From: Candidatus Micrarchaeia archaeon
GTDB lineage: Archaea > Micrarchaeota > Micrarchaeia > Norongarragalinales > CAINOH01
Reading direction: 5' to 3'
Assembly: GCA_046753405.1 (NCBI GenBank)
Contig: JBHHTN010000007.1
Span: 1 to 20,879 of the forward strand
DNA length: 20,879 bases
A program made the translations under genes and the position numbers. Each line of letters opens with the position of its first letter. Position 1 is the first letter of the stretch. The notes under the pieces were generated by a model. That model had not been told where the DNA came from, did not search any database, and was given only the letters and a program-made list of their open reading frames with translations. Shown in pieces: positions 231 to 11,182 of the stretch.

Positions 231-467
231 ATGGAAGTTGTAATCAAGCCGGGAACCAACAATCCCACCGGGTCCTGGCGCAACAAAAAGCCGGTTGTGG
301 ATTTGTCAAAGTGCACCAAGTGCAAGCTTTGCGAAACCTACTGTCCGGACACGTCTATATGCGTTCATTCTGAAGGCGCGGTGCCTGACTTAGAGTACTG
401 CAAAGGATGCGGTATTTGTGCGACGGAGTGTCCTGTTAAGTGCATTGAAATGCAGGAAGAACGTTGA
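231..467 (+). CDS. porD: 2-oxoacid (pyruvate):ferredoxin oxidoreductase delta subunit, a 2x[4Fe-4S] ferredoxin
   Basis: The 78-aa product carries two CxxCxxCxxxCP-type clusters (CTKCKLCETYCP and CKGCGICATECP). It lies immediately upstream of the alpha subunit. Confidence 0.85.
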   Translation: MEVVIKPGTNNPTGSWRNKKPVVDLSKCTKCKLCETYCPDTSICVHSEGAVPDLEYCKGCGICATECPVKCIEMQEER

Positions 468-564: not shown

Positions 565-1689
565 ATGAAGACTATTTTGGAGGGCAGCAAGGCGGTTGCC
601 CGTACGGTTGCTTTGTGCCGGCCTCATGTTATTCCAGCTTATCCTATTACGCCCAGTACGCATATTCCAGAGGAGTTGTCCAAAGAGCTTGCAGACTACG
701 AGTTTATTCCAGTTGAAGCCGAGTTTTCCGCAATGAGCGCGTGCATTGGGGCAAGCGCTGCAGGTGCTAGGGCGTTCACTGCTACCAGCAGCCAGGGGTT
801 GGCTTTGATGCACGAGGCGTTGCACAACGCAAGCGGAATGCGTCTTCCCATTGTCATGGCCGTTGCCAACAGGGCGTTGAGCGCTCCGATGAACATTTGG
901 TGTGACTGGCAGGACTCTGTTTCGCAGAGGGACACCGGTTGGATGCAGTTTTACTGCAAGAACAACCAGGAAGTTGTGGACACGATGATTCAATCGTTCA
1001 GGCTTGCTGAAAAGGTCCAGTTTCCGATAATGGTTTGCATGGATGGTTTTTACTTGACTCATGAAATTTCCCCAATTGACTTGCCTGTCCAAGAAGAGGT
1101 TGACGGGTTTTTGCCTGCTTTCAAACCCCGGTTTTCTTTGGACGTTGACGACGTGCATTCTTTTGGAACTTTTTTCCCGCCGGCGCATTATCATGATGCC
1201 AAGCGCGACCAGCAAAAGGAAATGCTCGCGGTTTTTCCTCATGTTGAACTTGTTGCAAAAGAGTTTGGGGAAAAGTTTGGTCGAGAGCAGTTTGGGGTTT
1301 TGGAAGAGTACTTCATGAAAAACTCGCAAGTGGTTTTTGTTTCAATGGGAGCGTTGGCTGAAAACGTTGAGTTGGTTGTGGATTCTTTGCGTGAGAAAGG
1401 AGAGCACGTGGGTTTGCTTCGCGTTAAGTGCTTCAGGCCGTTTCCATCTGTTCAATTTGCAAGGGCGTTGGAAAACGCGAGGGCGGTTGTTGTTTTGGAG
1501 AAAGATTTTTCACCTGGTTTGGAAGGCGCGCTTGCAACCGAAGTGAAAGCAGCGTTGCAGGACGCGCGCGAGAGGCCGAGCGTGTTGAGCGTTGTTTGCG
1601 GTCTTGGCGGGCGCGATGTCACTTTGAAGGAAATTGAAAGTGTTTTTGAACGGGCAAAAGGCGGGGAAACGGGTCCGACGTGGCTTTGA
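565..1689 (+). CDS. porA: 2-oxoacid (pyruvate or ketoisovalerate):ferredoxin oxidoreductase alpha subunit
   Basis: The 374-aa product shows PorA/VorA hallmarks (AYPITPST, GASAAGARAFTATSSQGL, DTGW). It has an ATG start and sits in the por cluster. Confidence 0.85.
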   Translation: MKTILEGSKAVARTVALCRPHVIPAYPITPSTHIPEELSKELADYEFIPVEAEFSAMSACIGASAAGARAFTATSSQGLALMHEALHNASGMRLPIVMAVANRALSAPMNIWCDWQDSVSQRDTGWMQFYCKNNQEVVDTMIQSFRLAEKVQFPIMVCMDGFYLTHEISPIDLPVQEEVDGFLPAFKPRFSLDVDDVHSFGTFFPPAHYHDAKRDQQKEMLAVFPHVELVAKEFGEKFGREQFGVLEEYFMKNSQVVFVSMGALAENVELVVDSLREKGEHVGLLRVKCFRPFPSVQFARALENARAVVVLEKDFSPGLEGALATEVKAALQDARERPSVLSVVCGLGGRDVTLKEIESVFERAKGGETGPTWL

Positions 1690-1713: not shown

Positions 1714-2376
1714 TTGGTTTTGAAAAAGTTTCAACAAGACTTGCTGGTGTTATTGGCGCAGGAAGGCGCGCTTTACCGCTTTGTGAAGCTTACCACGGGG
1801 GAGTTGGCCGGGAAAGTGAGCGTTTCACAGCAAACTGTTTCTCGCTGGATTTCGGGTTTGGAAGAAGCTGGACTGATCTACAAAAACAAGCAAGGCTTTC
1901 GAATAACGCAGAGTGGCAGAGAGTTTTTGCAGGGAGTTCACTTGGCCTTGGACAAAGTGCTTTCGAAGAAGGCGGGCAGCGTTTTCTTGCAGGGAACGGT
2001 GACGGAGGGTTTTGGAGACGGCGCGTACTACACTTCCCTGCCGGAATACAAGAAACAGTTGAAAAAGAGCGTTGGCTTCGAAGCCTTTCCAGGCACTTTG
2101 AACATCCGTCTTTCTTCGGAAGAGGATTTAAGGCAGAGAATGAAGTTGGACTCCAAGACAGGGTTGCACGTGAGGGGGTTTACGAAAGGCAAGAGGAGGT
2201 TCGGTTCTGCAAAGTGTTTTCCAGCGCTTGTGAACGGAAAAGTGAAGGCAGCGGTGATTATTCCGCAAAGGAGTCATTACTCGGCGGAAGTGGTGGAGTT
2301 GATTGCGCCTCTGAAGTTGCGAAAGGCGTTGAAGTTGAAGGATAATTCGATTGTTGAAATTGAAGTAAAAGAATAG
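1714..2376 (+). CDS. ribK: CTP-dependent archaeal riboflavin kinase (MJ0056 family) fused to an N-terminal winged-helix HTH, i.e. an RbkR-like regulator/kinase
   Basis: The N-terminus carries an HTH (LTTGELAGKVSVSQQTVSRWISGLEEAGLI). The C-terminus carries archaeal RibK motifs (FPGTLNIRL, GKRRFGSAKCFPA). The start is TTG, with GGGTG about 9 nt upstream. Confidence 0.7.
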   Translation: MVLKKFQQDLLVLLAQEGALYRFVKLTTGELAGKVSVSQQTVSRWISGLEEAGLIYKNKQGFRITQSGREFLQGVHLALDKVLSKKAGSVFLQGTVTEGFGDGAYYTSLPEYKKQLKKSVGFEAFPGTLNIRLSSEEDLRQRMKLDSKTGLHVRGFTKGKRRFGSAKCFPALVNGKVKAAVIIPQRSHYSAEVVELIAPLKLRKALKLKDNSIVEIEVKE

Positions 2377-2386
2377 TTGAAAAAAA

Positions 2387-4312
2387 ATGGCTGGAAAATT
2401 TGAAAAACCAAAGGAGTACTTTTTGCACGGGCACAGGTCTTGCGCTGGGTGCGGTCCGGCTGTTGCCATGCGACAGTGCTTGCAGGCACTTGGCGACGAG
2501 ACGGTTGTGGTGAACGCCACAGGTTGCATGGAAGTTGTAAGCACGCAGTACCCTGAAAGTTCTTGGAACTTGCCTTACATTCACTCTCTTTTTGAAAACG
2601 TGCCGTCTGTTGCAAGCGGTGTTTCTCGCGCCTTCAAAAAATTGGGCAAAAAAGGGGTTGTTGTTGGAATAGGCGGCGACGGTGCATGTTATTCGCCCGA
2701 CACGAAAATTTTGACGGCCGATGGTTTCAAGTGGGTGGCCGACGTTTCAACTAAAGATATTCTTTGGAGCGTTAACCCTGACACCTTTGAGCTTGAATTG
2801 CAACCTGTTGAAAAACTGCATCAATATTTTTTTGAAGGAAAAATGGTGCGGGCAAATACGCGATACGTTGATTTTCTTGTTACTTCTAACCACAACATTC
2901 CTGCAATGTTTCGTAAATCTGGAAAAATAGTTTTTTTAAAGGCAGAAGAGCTGTTGAAAAAATATAAAACCTTGTTGCCAAGAAGTTTCAAGTGGCATGG
3001 AGAGAAGAAAGATAGATTTGTTCTTCCAAAACTTCCAAGCAAAACCAGTATGAGGCAGTATTCGTCTTTTGACGCTGGCGACTGGGCCGAATTTGTTGGC
3101 TGGTACGTTACCGAAGGCAGTTGTTATCATAGCGACAGTGGCTACCTTGTAAGAATTTATCAGTCAAATAAAAAGAACCGCAAGCATATTTTGCAGTTAG
3201 TTAGGAAAATGGGGTTGCGTGCTTCTGAGTGTAGTCGTTCTGTTGATATTTCATCCAAGCAGCTTTTTACCTGCCTCAAAAATACTTGCGGGGATTATTT
3301 TTACAATAAAAGAATTCCGAAAGACGTTCTTTCATTATCTTCTGACAAGCTTTTACGGCTTTTCGATGCAATGATTCGTGGCGACGGCTGCAAAGTTCGC
3401 CCAGGTAAGGGGAGAACTTCATTTAGAACAACTTTCATAACCAAGTCGTCGTACTTGGTAAGTCAATTTACCGAGCTTTGCTTAAAGCTTGGAAAAGGCG
3501 TTCACATAACTTATGATAATAGGAGGATAGCAAGAATTGGCGTTCAAGAGAAACATGTAAAAAACGAGTTGTATTCCACAAGAAAATTTTCCCAGGGAAA
3601 GACTCAAGTTTTTGAGGAGGATTATGAAGGAATAGTTTACTGTCCTCAACTTCCAAAGAACCATACGCTGATAATCGAACGAAATGGAAAAGTCTCGTTG
3701 AGCGGAAACAGTTACGACATCGGTTTCGGCGCGTTGTCTGGGGCGATGGAGCGAAACGAGGACATGATTTACATTGCCTACGACAACGAGTGTTACGCCA
3801 ACACAGGAGTGCAAAGATCGGGCGCTACTCCTATTGGCGCGGTTACTACCACCTCGCCTGCAGAAATTCACGGCAAAGCACAGTGGAAGAAGAACTTGCC
3901 GTTTATTGCCGCCGCGCACGCTATTCCTTACGTTGCAACAAGTAGCATTGCGTTTATTCCGGATTTGAAAAAAAAGCTGCAAAAGGCAAAGGAAAAAAAG
4001 GGCTTTAGGTTGGTTCACGTTCACGCGCCTTGCCCTCTTGGCTGGAGGTTCGATTCGGGGAAAACAATTGAAGTTGCACGCCTTGCAGTCCGATGCGGTT
4101 TGTGGAACTTGTTTGAAATTGAAAACGGTCTCTTCAAGCAGTCAATGCGTTTTCCAAAGTTGGTTGATGTTGAGGATTACTTGAAATTGCAGGGAAGATT
4201 CAAGATACTTGATGAACAACAGTTGAAACAAATCAAGGAACACCTTGCGCGTGTTCAAACAGAATTGAAAAAGCTTGAGGACGCCAAACTGAATTTAGAG
4301 TACTTTTTGTAA
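2387..4312 (+). CDS. porB: 2-oxoacid:ferredoxin oxidoreductase beta subunit (TPP-binding), interrupted by an intein
   Basis: The N-extein (CAGCGP, GIGGDGA) and C-extein (SYDIGFGALSG, YDNECYANTGVQRSGATP) match PorB. The 641-aa ORF is about 340 aa longer than a typical beta subunit. Confidence 0.9.
   Translation: MAGKFEKPKEYFLHGHRSCAGCGPAVAMRQCLQALGDETVVVNATGCMEVVSTQYPESSWNLPYIHSLFENVPSVASGVSRAFKKLGKKGVVVGIGGDGACYSPDTKILTADGFKWVADVSTKDILWSVNPDTFELELQPVEKLHQYFFEGKMVRANTRYVDFLVTSNHNIPAMFRKSGKIVFLKAEELLKKYKTLLPRSFKWHGEKKDRFVLPKLPSKTSMRQYSSFDAGDWAEFVGWYVTEGSCYHSDSGYLVRIYQSNKKNRKHILQLVRKMGLRASECSRSVDISSKQLFTCLKNTCGDYFYNKRIPKDVLSLSSDKLLRLFDAMIRGDGCKVRPGKGRTSFRTTFITKSSYLVSQFTELCLKLGKGVHITYDNRRIARIGVQEKHVKNELYSTRKFSQGKTQVFEEDYEGIVYCPQLPKNHTLIIERNGKVSLSGNSYDIGFGALSGAMERNEDMIYIAYDNECYANTGVQRSGATPIGAVTTTSPAEIHGKAQWKKNLPFIAAAHAIPYVATSSIAFIPDLKKKLQKAKEKKGFRLVHVHAPCPLGWRFDSGKTIEVARLAVRCGLWNLFEIENGLFKQSMRFPKLVDVEDYLKLQGRFKILDEQQLKQIKEHLARVQTELKKLEDAKLNLEYFL
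2687..3709 (+). mobile_element. Intein (341 aa) with a LAGLIDADG homing endonuclease, inserted in the GDG TPP-binding motif of PorB
   Basis: It starts CYSPDTKILTADG (intein block A) right after GIGGDGA. Two LAGLIDADG blocks are present (WAEFVGWYVTEGS and LLRLFDAMIRGDGC). It ends ...VSLSGN followed by Ser +1 (SYDIG). The predicted spliced product GDGA-SYDIGF matches the native PorB motif. Confidence 0.8.
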
Positions 4313-5855: not shown

Positions 5856-5985
5856 TTCAGACCTCTCAAAGCATATATAATTCTGTTTGGAATAATTTTT
5901 TCATTAAAGTATTTAATGCGCTTGCTTCCTTAATTTAAGGAGAGGGTGCTTTTTTTTTAATTTTGTTTTATTGGAGAGTGGTTTT

Positions 5986-8490
5986 ATGAGGAACGGAAAA
6001 TACTTGTTTACGTCTGAGTCGGTTACCGAGGGGCATCCTGACAAGGTATGCGACCAGATTTCCGACGCGGTTTTGGACTCTATTTTTGAAAAAGACCCCA
6101 ACGGCCGCGTTGCAGTTGAAGCATTGGTGACAACGGGACAAGTGGTAATAGCAGGAGAGGTTAGGACAAACGCTTACGTTGACGCTGCTGGCATTGCCAG
6201 GAAAGTAATCAATGATATTGGGTACACTGACGCGGAACTTCAGTTTTCCGGGGACAGTTGCGGTGTTTTGGTTGCAATTCACGAGCAGTCTCAAGACATC
6301 GCGCAAGGTGTTGACGAAGGCGAGAAAAAAGAGCAGGGTGCAGGCGACCAAGGACTCATGTTCGGGTACGCCTCGAACGAAACTCCTGAATTGATGCCGT
6401 TGCCGATTATTTTGGCTCACAAGCTTACAAAAAAACTTTCAAAGGCAAGAAAAAGCGGGGAGATTCCTTATCTTAGGCCGGATGGGAAAAGCCAGGTAAC
6501 TGTTGAATACGACGGGAACAAGCCGGTTCGCGTTACCGCAGTTGTCATTTCAACGCAGCACTCCGACGAGGTTTCAAACGAGCAAATACGAAAAGACGTT
6601 ATTGAAAAGGTAATAAAGCCGGTTTGCGGCGACTGGTTGAAAGACGACACCAAGTTTTTCATCAACGCAACAGGACGCTTTGTTTTGGGAGGGCCCGCGG
6701 CAGACACAGGCGTAACAGGAAGAAAGATAATCGTCGACACCTACGGCGGGCACGGAAGCCATGGGGGCGGCGCGTTTTGTGTTTCCGGGGAGTCAATCGT
6801 AAATTCGGAGAAAGGTTTGGCGCCAATTAACGAACTTTCTTCTCTTCCTTCTGGTTCGCTTGTCAAAACGGATGTTTCTCCAACTCCAATGGAAACATGG
6901 CTTGACAATGGAGTTATGAGTACTTTACGGTTAGAAACAAAAGATGGTTACGGGCTTGAAGGCACGCCAAACCAATGCATTCGTGCGATTGATTTCAAGG
7001 GTAATTACGTTTGGCGGCGTTTTGACGCGATTCAGTCAACTGACTGGGTTGCAATACAACGCAAGAACAGGTTGTTTGGCCAAAAATCTGTTGTGAATTT
7101 TGAATTTAAACACAAAAAAGCCGCGCATAGAAAAAACGATTTTTCTTTTCCTGCGGAGCTTACCGAAGACTATGCTTATTTGCTTGGCCTTTTAACCGGC
7201 GATGGCATGTGCACTACGCGTGACGGCGTGCGAGTATGCGTTTGCGAAAAACAAATGGAAGAAGTCGTGCAATCCTTGTTAACTCGTCTGTTTGGAAAAA
7301 AAGGCAAGATATTCGGACACTGGGCGCATTATTGCGGAGTGGAACTGCGAGCTTATCTGGAACAATTGGGTCTTGGTTATTGGCGTTCATGGCAAAAAAA
7401 AGTACCTGCCAGTGTTTTGAGCGCGCCAAAAACCACTGTCGCAGCTTTTATTCGCGGTTTGTTTGACGCTGACGGTACTGTTAGAAGAACCGGAAGAAAC
7501 AAGAATTCTGTGGAAGTGAAATTGACCACGACTTCCAAAGAACTTGCATTAGGAGTTCAACAATTGTTGTTGAACTTTGGAATAGTCTGCGCAATTCAAA
7601 CGGTGCAAACAACCGGGAAAACCTCGCGCATTCGCAACCGGACTGTTCGTTCTGCAAGGCCTCTTTACCACGTTCGTGTAAAAGGCGTTGACAGTGTTCG
7701 AATCTTCCAAAAAGAAATCAATTTTGCGCTTGCTCGCAAGGCCAAGATTCTAAACAACATTGAAAACTCGTCAAAACGCAGTCGTCTAACTATTCCAAAC
7801 CAGCGCGAGCGCGTGAGGAGGCTTTGGTTAAAGCTTTCCTCAAGTGAGCATCAGAAAGACCGCGCCGGCGTTGGGCACTGGTTGCGCAATCCAAGCACCA
7901 AAGGTACAAAGGAACTTACTTACGCCAAAATGATTGATTTTATTGACGCTTACGAAACAAAGTTTGCAGGCAATAATGATTTTGAGTACTTGAGAACGTT
8001 TTTTGTCATGAATCATTATTATTCGAAAGTCAAATCTACGCAAAAAAGTCAAAGTCACGTTTATGACTTTGTTGTTCCCGGAGCCCATGCGTTTACTGCC
8101 AACGGTTTTGTGTGCCACAATTCTGGAAAAGACCCTTCCAAGGTTGACCGTTCGGCATCTTACATGGCCAGGTACATTGCGAAAAACATTGTTGCAGCTG
8201 GTTTGGCCGACCAGTGCGAAGTACAAATTGCGTACTGCATTGGAGTGGCAGAACCGGTGTCGGTTTTGGTCAGCACTTTTGGCACGAACAAGATTCCTGA
8301 AGAGAAGATTGCCCAGCTTGTTCGCGAGCACTTTCCGCTTAAGCCCTCGGAGCTTATCGAGCACTTGAACCTGCGCAGGCCGATTTTCAGGAAAACAGCT
8401 GTGTACGGCCACTTCGGACGCGAAGACCCTGATTTCACGTGGGAAAAAACGGACAAAGCAGACGAGTTGAAGAAAGCGGCAGGGCTTTGA
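5986..8490 (+). CDS. metK: S-adenosylmethionine synthetase of the bacterial/eukaryotic MetK type, interrupted by a large intein
   Basis: MetK motifs are present: [42 protein letters not shown] before the insert, and [14 protein letters not shown] / [14 protein letters not shown] after it. The ATG is at 5986; the tracked ORF begins at an upstream TTG at 5971. Confidence 0.9.
6778..8121 (+). mobile_element. Intein (448 aa) with a LAGLIDADG homing endonuclease, inserted in the GGGAF|SGKD triphosphate-binding loop of MetK
   Basis: It starts at the Cys right after HGGGAF (CVSGESIVN...). LAGLIDADG blocks are [14 protein letters not shown] and [14 protein letters not shown]. It ends ...GFVCHN followed by Ser +1 ([11 protein letters not shown]). 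The predicted spliced product [16 protein letters not shown] is the canonical MetK motif. Confidence 0.85.
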
Positions 8491-8719: not shown

Positions 8720-11182
8720 ATGAGGAAGTCTGTTCGGTCCAAAAAGGTTTCAGCGTCAAAGGCTGCAAAGTCTAAAGACCAAGACCCTTCTTTTTTGAAA
8801 GACTTCAAGTCTACTGCTGAAATTCACGTTTCTGAAAAACTGGTTGACCAGATCATCGGCCAGGAAAAAGCCGTTGAAGTAATAAAGAAAGCGGCAAGGC
8901 AAAAGAGGAACGTTTTGCTCATCGGCATTCCCGGAACCGGCAAAAGCATGATTGCACAGGCAATGAGCGAGCTTATTCCGCTTCAAGAGTTGCAGGACAT
9001 TATAGTTGAAGCAAATCCGGATGACGAAAACGTTCCTAAAATAAAAGTTGTGAAAGCAGGGGATGCGCGAAAATTCGTTGCAGCCGAAAAAACCAAAGGC
9101 AAAATGGCCGGAGGCAACATAAACATCGTGTTGTTCGTTTTCATGGCCTTGTCTACCATGGTTCTCTTGTACTTTGGACCCGGGTTTTTCGGCGAAGTCA
9201 TCACGGCCGCGCTTTTAATCGGGTCGTTCATGATGGGCGCAGGACTCATGTTTGCCTCGCAACTCGGACGAGGCCGCCTGATGGCCGAGGCAGAGTCATT
9301 GAAAGTGCTTGTGGACAACAAGGGAAGGAAAAAAGCTCCTTTTGTTGAGGCAACAGGAGCCAAGGCAGGGTCTTTGCTTGGCGACGTGAGGCACGATCCC
9401 TTTCAATCTACAATTGACGAAACAAAATTGTATGTTAGGCGTAGTGGTGGAATGCAGAAAATTTCTTTTGGAGCTCTTTGGAAAGAGATGGTTAAGAAGT
9501 ATCCTGACTTGTTTGAGCGTCGTGAGGATGGTTACGAAGCAATAATGCTTCCCGAAAGTGAAGAGCTTTACACGCTTGGAGTAAAGGATGGGCAGGTTGT
9601 GGCAACGAGAATGCTTGTTATTAACCGCCGTCCATTTAAGGGAAAAATTGTTGCTACTTATTCAAATAAAGGACTGCTTGAAACTACTCCTGAACATGCG
9701 TACATTCTTTCTGACAAAGAGAAAAAAGCATCAGAACTGGATGCTGATGACGAGCTTTTGATATTGCAGGATAAGCAAATTGTCGAGGAAAAAATTTCTT
9801 CTAAATCGGAGAAGGATTTTGACGGTTGGGTTTACAACACTACGACGGATACTGGGAATTTTTTTGCCAACGATGTTCTAATTCACAACTCCGGCGGTCT
9901 TGGAACTCCTCCGCATTTGCGTGTTGAGGCGGGTTTTGTTCACAAGGCTAATAAGGGGGTTTTGTTTGTTGATGAAGTTGCGACTTTGAGGCAGAAGAGC
10001 CAACAAGAGTTGTTGACTGCAATGCAGGAGCGAAAGTACTCGATTACAGGTCAAAGCGAGATGTCAAGCGGGGCCATGGTGAGAACCGAGCCAGTTCCGT
10101 GCGATTTTGTTTTGGTTGCAGCGGGTAATTACACTGACTTGCGCAAGATGCATCCGGCTTTGCGCTCCAGGATAAGGGGTTATGGTTACGAGGTTTACAT
10201 GGAGAAGTCTATTCCAAGCAATGTTGAAAACATAAAGAGGCTTGTCCAGTTCATAGCGCAGGAAGTTAAAAAGGACGGTAAGATTCCGCATTTTGACAAA
10301 AGTGCGGTAGTTGAAATAATCAAAGAAGCACACAAGAGATCTGGTCGCAAGAATAAGCTTACTTTGAAGCTTCGCGACCTTGGCGGTTTGATTCGTGCTG
10401 CTGGGGACCTGGCAAAAGAGCAGGGCGCGCACCATGTTTCTGTTTCTCATGTTAGACGGGCAAAAGTGATTTCAAGTACTTTGGAGCAGCAGGCAATGGC
10501 GCAGTATATTTCCATTAGGAAGGATTACCAAGTGTTTCAGACCAGAGGCAAAGCCATTGGAAGAGTCAATGGTTTGGCGGTGATGGCTGACGCCGGGCTT
10601 GTGCTTCCGATTGTTGCAGAGGTCAGTCCTGCTGCAAGCAAGCTTGAGGGAAAAATTATTGCAACTGGCAAGCTTGAGAAAATTGCCGAGGAAGCAGTGC
10701 AAAACGTAAGTGTCATTATCAAAAAGCATTTGGGAAAAGACACGTCCAACTACGACGTGCACGTTCAATTTTTGCAGACTTATGAGGGAGTGGAAGGAGA
10801 CAGTGCCAGTGTTTCTGTTGCAACCGCGGTTATTTCCGCGTTGGAGGAAGCGCCCATTGACCAGAATATTGCAATGACTGGCTCGTTGTCGGTTCGCGGA
10901 GAGGTTTTGCCAGTGGGCGGTGTTACTGGGAAGGTTGAAGCTGCAATTGAAGCGGGTTTGACAAAGGTGCTTGTTCCCAAGGCAAACGAGGGAGACATTG
11001 TGCTTGAAGAGGCAAAGTTGAAAAAAGTGGAAATCATCCCAGTGTGCGACATCTTCGACGTTTTGGATCACGCGTTGTCAAAGTCAAAGAAGAAAAAGCA
11101 ATTGCTTGGAACAATCAAAGAAGAATTGGGAGGATCATTTGAAAGTTTTTCAGATGTTATTAAGACAAGGCGCGAAAAGTAA
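8720..11182 (+). CDS. lonB: Archaeal membrane-bound ATP-dependent Lon protease (LonB), interrupted by a mini-intein
   Basis: Walker A is GIPGTGKS. Two TM helices are inserted in the AAA module (NINIVLFVFMALSTMVLLYF and ITAALLIGSFMMGAGLMF). GDVRHDPFQ and SGGLGTPPHLRVEAGFVHKANKGVLFVDE flank the insert. There is a C-terminal Lon protease domain (SVATAVISAL, GEVLPVGGVTGK). Confidence 0.9.
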   Translation: MRKSVRSKKVSASKAAKSKDQDPSFLKDFKSTAEIHVSEKLVDQIIGQEKAVEVIKKAARQKRNVLLIGIPGTGKSMIAQAMSELIPLQELQDIIVEANPDDENVPKIKVVKAGDARKFVAAEKTKGKMAGGNINIVLFVFMALSTMVLLYFGPGFFGEVITAALLIGSFMMGAGLMFASQLGRGRLMAEAESLKVLVDNKGRKKAPFVEATGAKAGSLLGDVRHDPFQSTIDETKLYVRRSGGMQKISFGALWKEMVKKYPDLFERREDGYEAIMLPESEELYTLGVKDGQVVATRMLVINRRPFKGKIVATYSNKGLLETTPEHAYILSDKEKKASELDADDELLILQDKQIVEEKISSKSEKDFDGWVYNTTTDTGNFFANDVLIHNSGGLGTPPHLRVEAGFVHKANKGVLFVDEVATLRQKSQQELLTAMQERKYSITGQSEMSSGAMVRTEPVPCDFVLVAAGNYTDLRKMHPALRSRIRGYGYEVYMEKSIPSNVENIKRLVQFIAQEVKKDGKIPHFDKSAVVEIIKEAHKRSGRKNKLTLKLRDLGGLIRAAGDLAKEQGAHHVSVSHVRRAKVISSTLEQQAMAQYISIRKDYQVFQTRGKAIGRVNGLAVMADAGLVLPIVAEVSPAASKLEGKIIATGKLEKIAEEAVQNVSVIIKKHLGKDTSNYDVHVQFLQTYEGVEGDSASVSVATAVISALEEAPIDQNIAMTGSLSVRGEVLPVGGVTGKVEAAIEAGLTKVLVPKANEGDIVLEEAKLKKVEIIPVCDIFDVLDHALSKSKKKKQLLGTIKEELGGSFESFSDVIKTRREK
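9407..9889 (+). mobile_element. Mini-intein (161 aa, no endonuclease domain) in the DPFQ|SGGLGTP motif of LonB
   Basis: It starts with Ser (STIDETKL...) and has a Hint block B-like LLETTPEHAYIL. It ends VLIHN followed by Ser +1. The predicted spliced product DPFQSGGLGTP matches the native archaeal LonB motif. No LAGLIDADG or HNH blocks were seen. Confidence 0.7.

Follow-up and report, generated by a model that had tools for sequence, protein, structure and literature searches.

In the 20,879-nucleotide stretch of a Candidatus Micrarchaeia archaeon analyzed here (assembly GCA_046753405.1, contig JBHHTN010000007.1; referred to below as the window), a gene for a PorB-like beta subunit of a 2-oxoacid:ferredoxin oxidoreductase is interrupted at positions 2687..3709 by an insert of 341 residues. 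Most probably this insert, called PorB-a here, is a bifunctional, mobile intein of the class 1 type and belongs to the Gly-Asn lineage that includes the chloroplast ClpP intein of Chlamydomonas eugametos (Ceu ClpP). The anatomy of the PorB-a intein, its junctions, its fold, its homology and the pattern of conservation among its residues are established. The element is also probably active and mobile, judging from the residues that it retains. It is the host gene, PorB, that is new, while the Gly-Asn lineage of inteins is already known.

The porB precursor is taken from the list of open reading frames at 2387..4312, with its stop codon at 4310-4312 (this and all other features described lie on the plus strand), and comprises 641 residues including the intein. 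It is identical to a deposited protein (P0001), named 'MAG: thiamine pyrophosphate-dependent enzyme [Candidatus Micrarchaeia archaeon]', where MAG denotes a metagenome-assembled genome, and it matches the NCBIfam PorB model NF008819 with E=1.9e-105 in two stretches that are interrupted at the insert. The N-extein (2387..2686, 100 residues) ends in GIGGDGA, in which the GDG at residues 97-99 (nucleotides 2675-2683) is the ligand motif of thiamine pyrophosphate (TPP) enzymes for Mg2+ and the TPP diphosphate. The insertion point is found one residue past this GDG. Both the reading of the DNA and the alignment of the exteins place the intein, at 1023 nucleotides, between the TGT codon of Cys1, which opens it at 2687, and the AAC codon of Asn341, which follows Gly340 and closes it at 3709; the AGT at 3710-3712 then provides the +1 Ser. 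The intein accordingly starts with CYSPDTKILT and ends with KVSLSGN. The C-extein (3710..4309, 200 residues) opens with SYDIGFGALSG.

Excision of the intein in silico yields GGDGASYDIGFGALSG, which is an exact match to intein-free PorBs, and the resulting protein of 300 residues gives a single continuous match to NF008819 over residues 8-288, with a score of 373 bits. The peptide across the spliced junction is GVVVGIGGDGASYDIGFGALSGAMER. The junction GGDGASYDIGFGALS is the same as that of the intein-free protein P0061 and is one residue off that of P0030, and GGDGASYDIG equals the corresponding segment of intein-free homologues. A C-terminal junction moved so as to regain a His-Asn dipeptide was considered and ruled out, because aligning the exteins leaves a single residue at which the junction can lie, and a shift recovers no such dipeptide. 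The only His near this junction is found in KNHTLII, 15 residues upstream.

The conservation of the intein was assessed in an alignment (A1) of 29 PorB inteins at the same site, the window's included, which are 34-69% identical to that of the window. Block A (CYSPDTKILTADG, 2687..2725) contains the Cys1 nucleophile, and its C1, Y2, T6, G13 and F14 are invariant in the 29 alleles. Block B (YVDFLVTSNHNIPA, 2864..2905) harbors Thr66 at B:7, conserved in at least 90%, the invariant His69 at B:10, and Ile71 at B:12, a position that is V, I, F or M in the family and never Trp. Block F (YEGIVYCPQLPKNHTLII, 3623..3676) contains Cys319 at F:4, a position usually held by Asp, together with Pro320, both of which are invariant, and the block-F His, His326, which is found in 28 of the 29. 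In alignments, the Cys319 column corresponds to the Asp of IYDLTV in the Mja KlbA intein (2jmz) and to that of VYDLSV in PI-PkoII, which has VYD where PorB-a has Cys at the third of these positions, and His326 is aligned with the block-F His of KlbA. The KlbA residue in this column is Asp147, known as block F position 4 (PMC2807308). The Arg332 of an RNG(K) motif is retained in at least 90% of the alleles. Block G (KVSLSGN) and the +1 Ser codon occupy 3689..3712, with Gly340 at G:6 and Asn341 at G:7; the Asn is invariant, the residue at G:6 is Gly in 28 of the 29 and Met in one, and the +1 residue is either Ser or Thr in all 29. The predicted active site is hence composed of Cys1, T-x-x-H, Cys (F:4), His (F), Gly (G:6), Asn (G:7) and Ser (+1).

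Nested within the splicing blocks is a LAGLIDADG homing-endonuclease domain (3062..3586, about residues 126-300, with approximate boundaries), recognized from matches to PI-PkoII and from Foldseek, in which the modeled secondary structure alternates between helix and strand. Motif 1 (WAEFVGWYVTEGSC, 3083..3124, residues 133-146) has Glu143 as its putative catalytic acid, and E143 and G144 are invariant in the 29 alleles, as are G232, D233 and G234 of motif 2 (KLLRLFDAMIRGDGC, 3347..3391, residues 221-235), in which Asp233 is the putative catalytic acid. Among 142 relatives of the intein in other host proteins, the acid of motif 1 is either Glu or Asp in 137 and that of motif 2 is Asp in 138. 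The element therefore has both of the expected motifs, each ending in an acid, and the alpha-beta-beta-alpha-beta-beta-alpha repeat fold of a two-motif monomeric LAGLIDADG enzyme, and the invariance of the two acids argues for selection on homing.

With respect to intein class, PorB-a is an in-frame insert whose removal restores the host motif, and it has Cys1, Thr66-x-x-His69, Asn341, the +1 Ser and a Hint fold, all as in class 1; the class 1 feature that it lacks is the penultimate His at G:6, frequent in the class but dispensable, where it has Gly340. Assignment to class 2, the KlbA-like inteins with Ala1 in place of an N-terminal nucleophile and Ser at G:6, was rejected in view of Cys1 and Gly340. 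Class 3 is defined by a WCT triplet (Trp at B:12, Cys at F:4 and Thr at G:5), and its members usually have no N-terminal nucleophile (PMC2807308). The class 3 inteins, of which the mycobacteriophage Bethlehem DnaB intein is the prototype, resemble PorB-a in the F:4 Cys and the +1 Ser or Thr, but PorB-a has an invariant Cys1 and a TxxH block B and has neither Trp at B:12 nor Thr at G:5. Assignment to class 3 was also rejected, as the WCT triplet is missing: B:12 is Ile, G:5 is Ser, Cys1 is invariant, and only the F:4 Cys fits.

To explore the homology of the insert, its 341 residues alone were run through an exhaustive HMMER search, in which 7318 proteins matched with E<=1e-3, and 177 of them with E<=1e-30. 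The top matches for the most part span intein residues 1-341 and are internal to larger, unrelated proteins, often with several such stretches in each. End-to-end internal matches in unrelated hosts are the pattern that is expected of inteins, and, as judged by sequence similarity, 7318 relatives put the PorB-a intein far beyond chance. When the profile of A1 was compared with solved structures, it matched the PI-PkoII endonuclease (E=1.2e-13), TliVMA, the Hint domain of Mja KlbA (2jmz) and a bacterial intein-like domain; the PI-PkoII endonuclease domain was also found by phmmer, with E=2e-5. The AlphaFold2 model, which was likewise built on A1, has a predicted local distance difference test score of 91.8 and a predicted template modeling (TM) score of 0.90. 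Its best Foldseek matches in the PDB are TliVMA (7qsu, 1.1e-15) and PI-PkoII (2cw7, 3.7e-15), followed by 7qss, 7qst, PI-SceI and PI-PfuI. These archaeal-type structures (PI-PkoII, TliVMA and PhoVMA, PI-SceI and PI-PfuI), with Foldseek E values from 1e-15 to 1e-9, share with PorB-a the combination of Hint and LAGLIDADG domains, at a sequence identity of only 10-15%, and presumably end in the canonical His-Asn. Lower in the ranking are the free-standing LAGLIDADG enzymes I-DmoI, I-Tsp061I and I-SceI, with target-normalized TM-scores of 0.59-0.63 for the I-DmoI matches, as well as Hint-only matches to the PhoCDC21-1 intein, hedgehog (1at0) and BIL2, the PDB entries including 6rpq, 1at0 and 6tmm.

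Much of this anatomy had been proposed in a first-pass annotation made from the DNA letters, which described a PorB intein of 341 residues inserted in the TPP-binding GDG motif, with a block A of CYSPDTKILT, both LAGLIDADG blocks and a Gly-Asn end before Ser. Each of these points is borne out: the insert is an intein, has a Hint fold and contains the two LAGLIDADG motifs, its catalytic acids and other key residues are invariant in the 29 alleles, and the Gly-Asn terminus and the position at the GDG follow from the DNA reading and from the junction set by the exteins. The annotation had also named two findings that would undo it, namely a true junction elsewhere that restores His-Asn and a lack of Hint homology; the junction stands, with no His-Asn restored, and the Hint homology is present.

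Several observations weigh against the reading of PorB-a as an active intein of a PorB enzyme, or at least temper it. No significant match to the insert was obtained with the Pfam Hint and Intein_splicing models or with those of NCBIfam, and the Pfam LAGLIDADG_3 model reaches 17 bits, under its gathering score. Because the Pfam intein models fall below significance, the family assignment leans on the fold, the profile matches to PDB structures and the exhaustive search. The counts of conserved residues are drawn from the matches most similar to the query and so represent a biased sample, and it is from conservation that we infer splicing competence, the residues that compensate for the absent His, and endonuclease activity. 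Wang and Liu, in 1997, reportedly found that the Ceu ClpP intein spliced in E. coli only after its Gly had been changed to His, which would mean that Gly at G:6 can handicap splicing in some contexts. Finally, the 373 bits of the spliced PorB lie under the 405-bit equivalog cut-off of NF008819, which is still the best-scoring model, with the VorB-type model NF008818 behind it at 343 bits. As both PorA and the spliced PorB are under their equivalog cut-offs, pyruvate specificity is not established, and the safest call for the product, as far as its sequence suggests, is a PorB/VorB-type 2-oxoacid:ferredoxin oxidoreductase beta subunit. A word-indexed protein search with the intein alone also gave no match at E<=1e-3, although the database contains the identical precursor; the word filter had missed it, and empty results of such a search are unreliable for divergent, Lys-rich inserts. 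Both the Pfam and the word-index misses are failures of sensitivity and no sign of uniqueness.

The Gly-Asn terminus is not confined to the window. A local hidden Markov model of A1 was used to extract 172 full-length intein copies from database homologues, and 164 of these end in Gly-Asn. This dipeptide closes 28 of the 29 inteins at PorB site a and 136 of the 142 copies from other hosts, the remainder of which end in GQ (three copies), SN, MN and KN. All 142 of the latter have an N-terminal Cys; F:4 is Cys in 122 and Asp in 14, and Arg332, Asn333 and Gly334 are each found in at least 127. The host proteins include DNA polymerase B and an ornithine cyclodeaminase-family enzyme, both confirmed with Pfam, and UDP-glucose (uridine diphosphate glucose) dehydrogenase and a GltB-like flavin mononucleotide (FMN) enzyme, identified from precomputed Pfam domains; RNA polymerase subunits were recognized solely from flanking motifs.

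The nearest relatives outside PorB are 31-42% identical to the PorB-a intein, and all of them have both the Gly-Asn end and the Cys at F:4 and are found in glycine-rich cofactor loops of metabolic enzymes. One is inserted in an ornithine cyclodeaminase-family protein of Brockarchaeota and Thermoproteota as IGADA/C...GN/SGKEE (slashes mark the junctions), another in the GltB-like FMN enzyme as GAKPG/C...GN/SGG, and a further one in UDP-glucose dehydrogenase. The records of these relatives are P0126, L010 (2707-3753) and L012 (3001-4047); P0107 and L011 (2921-3928); and P0117.

The Ceu ClpP intein of Wang and Liu (1997) is said to have been the first intein described with a penultimate Gly. Its sequence, obtained from the supplement of PMC5784728, aligns with the PorB-a family with an hhalign probability of 99.6 and E=2.5e-24 over 265 columns, with homology both in the N-terminal half of the Hint domain and in the endonuclease. 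The two also have in common a C-terminal signature, YxGxVYC...RNGK...GN (BLASTP E=3e-4), which reads YKGPVYC...VQRNGKAVWTGN in one of them and YEGIVYC...IERNGKVSLSGN in the other, as well as Cys1, a TPNH-type block B (...LVT[SP]NH...), the F:4 Cys and the Gly-Asn end itself. In other respects they differ: Ceu ClpP is found in a chloroplast protease rather than in an archaeal TPP enzyme, it is 456 residues long compared with 341, and the overall identity is only about 25%. Its LAGLIDADG acids have been replaced by Asn (IANGH and LGNC), so that its endonuclease seems to be dead, while PorB-a retains Glu143 and Asp233. On the basis of the Ceu ClpP homology and the Gly-Asn end, the PorB-a intein falls within this Ceu ClpP-like lineage.

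Gly-Asn termini have been reported in the Ceu ClpP intein, the Candida ThrRS inteins, Pno RPA2 and Cre RPB2, and Goodwin, Butler and Poulter found that the Gly-Asn inteins form a single cluster with 99% support, whose members are Pno RPA2, Cre RPB2, Cst/Sas RPB2, Ctr/Cpa ThrRS, Ceu ClpP and 'a set of prokaryotic inteins' (Goodwin et al. 2006, PMC1635734). The PorB-a lineage resembles this cluster in its Gly-Asn C-terminus, its non-allelic spread over unrelated genes and its LAGLIDADG-type domains, and its top matches also include multi-intein polymerases ending in Gly-Asn, one of which is a DNA polymerase B according to Pfam. In contrast, the examples in the Goodwin cluster come from eukaryotic, organellar or viral information-processing genes, while the host of PorB-a is an archaeal gene of central metabolism. 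Membership of PorB-a in the cluster would follow from the homology to Ceu ClpP rather than from a tree.

Around 5% of functional inteins have a residue other than His at G:6, and reversion to His improves splicing in some of these and worsens it in others; the residue at F:4, in order of frequency, is Asp, then Cys, then Trp (PMC4031507). The first-pass annotation had rightly singled out the Gly at G:6, with no mention of the more unusual invariant Cys at F:4, and had taken the Gly-Asn end to imply either an atypical environment for Asn cyclization or reduced splicing. That implication finds no support for this allele in particular, given how widely the Gly-Asn end is shared. As Gly-Asn is the rule in the lineage and some 5% of functional inteins do without the G:6 His, reduced splicing specific to this allele is unsupported. 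As far as the sequences indicate, the Gly-Asn end of PorB-a is a known hallmark of the Ceu ClpP-like lineage and not an oddity of one allele.

A splicing route for PorB-a can be proposed along these lines. The 641-residue PorB precursor would fold, after which Cys1, assisted by Thr66 and His69 of block B, would attack the Ala(-1)-Cys1 bond to give a thioester, and the N-extein would then pass to the hydroxyl of the +1 Ser to form a branched ester. Cyclization of Asn341 to a succinimide would free the intein, and an O-to-N shift would complete a PorB of 300 residues with an intact GDGASYDIG loop for TPP and Mg2+. Since the 341-residue insert splits this cofactor loop, the enzyme should be inactive prior to splicing. 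With Gly at G:6, help with Asn cyclization must come from elsewhere, and the candidate substitutes for the His, all conserved in the clade, are His326, the Arg332-Asn333-Gly334 motif and/or Cys319. Homing would be mediated by the nested LAGLIDADG endonuclease, with Glu143 and Asp233 as its acids, which would cut intein-free porB at the GDG-coding site between GGCGGCGACGGTGCA and AGTTACGACATCGGT, and repair of the cut allele would then copy the intein in.

An alternative, which we consider rather unlikely and which amounts to the reduced splicing of the first-pass annotation, is that the intein is genuine but slow or conditional, in that the Gly at G:6 weakens Asn cyclization and PorB maturation is either rate-limited or dependent on temperature, redox state or a partner. 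The His normally found at G:6 stabilizes the tetrahedral intermediate and makes the scissile bond more electrophilic, its reintroduction enhances splicing in some G:6 variants, and cyclization of the Asn is the step that proceeds most slowly in most of the inteins that have been studied (PMC4031507), all of which would be in keeping with slow splicing. However, the Gly has been kept in nearly all PorB-a alleles and in nearly all relatives, within very different hosts, at the frequencies given above, and such retention suggests that the state is compensated and under selection and is not a defect. In view of what was reported for Ceu ClpP, reduced splicing may possibly be a property of the Gly-Asn lineage as a whole.

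A second alternative concerns Cys319, which might have a catalytic or regulatory role, either as a second thioester carrier between Cys1 and the +1 Ser, in a manner similar to class 3, or as the partner of Cys1 in a reversible disulfide that would block splicing under oxidizing conditions and so gate the maturation of an oxygen-labile enzyme. This we regard as improbable. The residue is invariant in the 29 PorB-a alleles, is Cys in 122 of the 142 relatives and, in KlbA and PI-PkoII, is matched by the Asp at F:4. Surveys of the InBase era treated Cys at F:4 as the distinguishing mark of class 3, and class 3 favors Ser or Thr at +1 (PMC2807308). A similar preference is apparent here, with Ser or Thr at +1 in 113 of the 122 copies with Cys at F:4 and Cys at +1 in 7 of the 14 with Asp (Fisher p=1.7e-4, with kinship ignored), but this covariation may reflect mere shared ancestry. 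The remainder of the class 3 signature is, moreover, missing from the family, where Cys1 and TxxH are invariant, B:12 is V, I, F or M, and G:5 is Ser or Asn. The same Cys is also present in hosts that are unconnected with oxygen sensitivity, from which it follows that the F:4 Cys is no adaptation to PorB. The broader proposition, that a lineage with Cys1, Cys at F:4, Gly at G:6 and mostly Ser or Thr at +1 is mechanistically distinct, with the block-F Cys serving as an acyl carrier or as the redox partner of Cys1, is given similarly little credence. Were the Cys an acyl carrier, the Gly-Asn lineage would represent an extant link from class 1 inteins to those of class 3, and the origin of class 3 has been deemed hard to explain by stepwise mutation (PMC7664689); were it a redox switch, assembly of the TPP site in an oxygen-labile PorB enzyme would hinge on reducing conditions.

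That PorB-a is a decaying remnant unable to splice, which would leave this porB copy effectively a pseudogene, is highly improbable, for although the Pfam intein models stay under threshold and the source organism is uncultured, the reading frame of 641 codons is uninterrupted, the key residues for splicing and for the endonuclease are intact and invariant in 29 diverged alleles, the structure model is confident, the exteins keep a full-length PorB match, and porD and porA adjoin porB.

The reading of PorB-a as a mobile intein is also consistent with its composition and distribution. The guanine plus cytosine (GC) content of the intein is 39.8%, or 39% at third codon positions (GC3), compared with a GC of 46-51% and a GC3 of 51-53% in the exteins. 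In 22 of 26 homologues with an intein at the same site, the intein is more similar to that of the window than the exteins are, with 69% versus 50% identity in P0002 and 64% versus 41% in P0009. In the proteins with the nearest exteins (P0030-P0035, 53-82% identical depending on the extein segment), site a is empty and either site b or site c, described below, is filled. A distribution that is sporadic and independent of the exteins, as these sequence comparisons indicate, is as expected of a homing element.

The first-pass annotation had proposed a survey of PorB homologues for occupied and empty alleles and had known of no described intein in such a subunit. Occupied alleles of site a were found in 28 further protein clusters, and the site is empty in P0030-P0035. 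Insertion at the same site was observed in 10 of the 14 species-representative genome loci found (L001-L009 and L013), and the loci with PorB-a carry the labels Iainarchaeum, Diapherotrites, Woesearchaeota, Nanoarchaeota, uncultured archaeon and 'Candidatus Omnitrophota bacterium'. As to prior description, no paper was found that describes inteins in PorB or pyruvate:ferredoxin oxidoreductase (PFOR), within openly searchable literature that included the text of the Novikova 2016 survey. Many alleles are nevertheless present in public metagenome data, and some records from the Joint Genome Institute (JGI) are automatically annotated as 'PorB/intein/homing endonuclease'. The PorB intein allele is hence undescribed rather than rare.

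Four of the GTDB species-representative records with a site-a intein (L003, L005, L008 and L009) are labeled 'Candidatus Omnitrophota bacterium' and include the single-cell genome AM-312-C06; the intein match extends from 3001 to about 4029 in each. The exteins of these records are closely similar to those of Woesearchaeota and Nanoarchaeota, and the records could reflect either mis-binning or cross-domain transfer.

Two further insertion sites were located by mapping the inserts of PorB homologues (P0030-P0113) onto the spliced extein. Site b (Y.N/CL...VVHN/TG), located where the GDG...N motif closes with its Asn, is occupied in 49 clusters by an intein with the canonical His-Asn and Thr at +1. 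Site c (Y[LIV]/CLP...VI[QS]N/CYDNE), where the residue at G:6 is not His, is occupied in five proteins (P0030, P0031, P0068, P0079 and P0109). Sites a and b are both occupied in P0010 and P0015. In the window's porB, both site b, within ...YAN/TG of the C-extein with its Asn at nucleotides 3800-3802, and site c, at about nucleotide 3776, are empty. The PorB-b and PorB-c inteins share with PorB-a the host protein and its TPP motif and are found mostly in DPANN-type genomes, but they are unrelated to it in sequence. All three sites are found inside the TPP/Mg2+-binding motif of about 30 residues. PorB inteins are thus common in DPANN-type genomes from metagenomes, with at least three sites in the TPP motif.

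Published surveys of inteins report a strong bias toward ATPases of replication, repair and nucleotide metabolism (PMC4760082). A TPP-dependent iron-sulfur enzyme of central carbon metabolism, with inteins at no fewer than three sites in a 30-residue motif, broadens the known host range, and the PorB sites conform to the general preference of inteins for ligand-binding loops of the highest conservation. The best remaining novelty is the unexplained presence, throughout the clade, of Cys at F:4 alongside Cys1. As a compact Gly-Asn member of 341 residues, with apparently intact endonuclease motifs and 29 diverged homologues for comparison, PorB-a is suited to two questions: how Asn cyclizes in the absence of a penultimate His, and what role an F:4 Cys plays beside Cys1. 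In terms of annotation, PorB genes of 630-1000 residues in DPANN genomes are best regarded as intein-bearing precursors and not as novel fusions.

The order of genes around the intein is a porD-like ferredoxin, porA, a riboflavin kinase gene and porB. The porD-like gene (231..467), upstream of porA, encodes a putative 2x[4Fe-4S] ferredoxin subunit of 78 residues, a call made from the two CxxCxxCxxxCP motifs in its frame-3 translation. The porA gene (565..1689) encodes an alpha subunit of 374 residues that matches NCBIfam PorA_Arch NF040682 with E=1.2e-141 and 472 bits, under the equivalog cut-off of 550 bits. The gene for a winged-helix, cytidine triphosphate (CTP)-dependent riboflavin kinase (1714..2376; NF010762, E=4e-54) splits porA from porB; the por operon is usually contiguous.

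Two other genes of the window contain intein-like inserts. The MetK intein (6778..8121, 448 residues, in the reading frame 5971..8490) has the junctions GGGAF/CVSGES...FVCHN/, matches LAGLIDADG_3 with E=2.6e-22 and Intein_splicing with E=1e-6, and ends in His-Asn; its host is an S-adenosylmethionine synthetase of the bacterial/eukaryotic type. A probable third intein of the window is an insert of 161 residues (9407..9889, in the reading frame 8720..11182) in an archaeal LonB protease, with the junctions HDPFQ/STIDETKL...DVLIHN/SGGLGTP. It has a GC content of 39.8% and matches the Pfam Intein_splicing model with E=1.3e-4, under the gathering score, and it has the look of a mini-intein, as it starts with Ser1, ends in His-Asn and lacks an endonuclease domain. 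The occurrence of the MetK and LonB inserts within the same 20.9-kb window fits an intein-rich DPANN genome.

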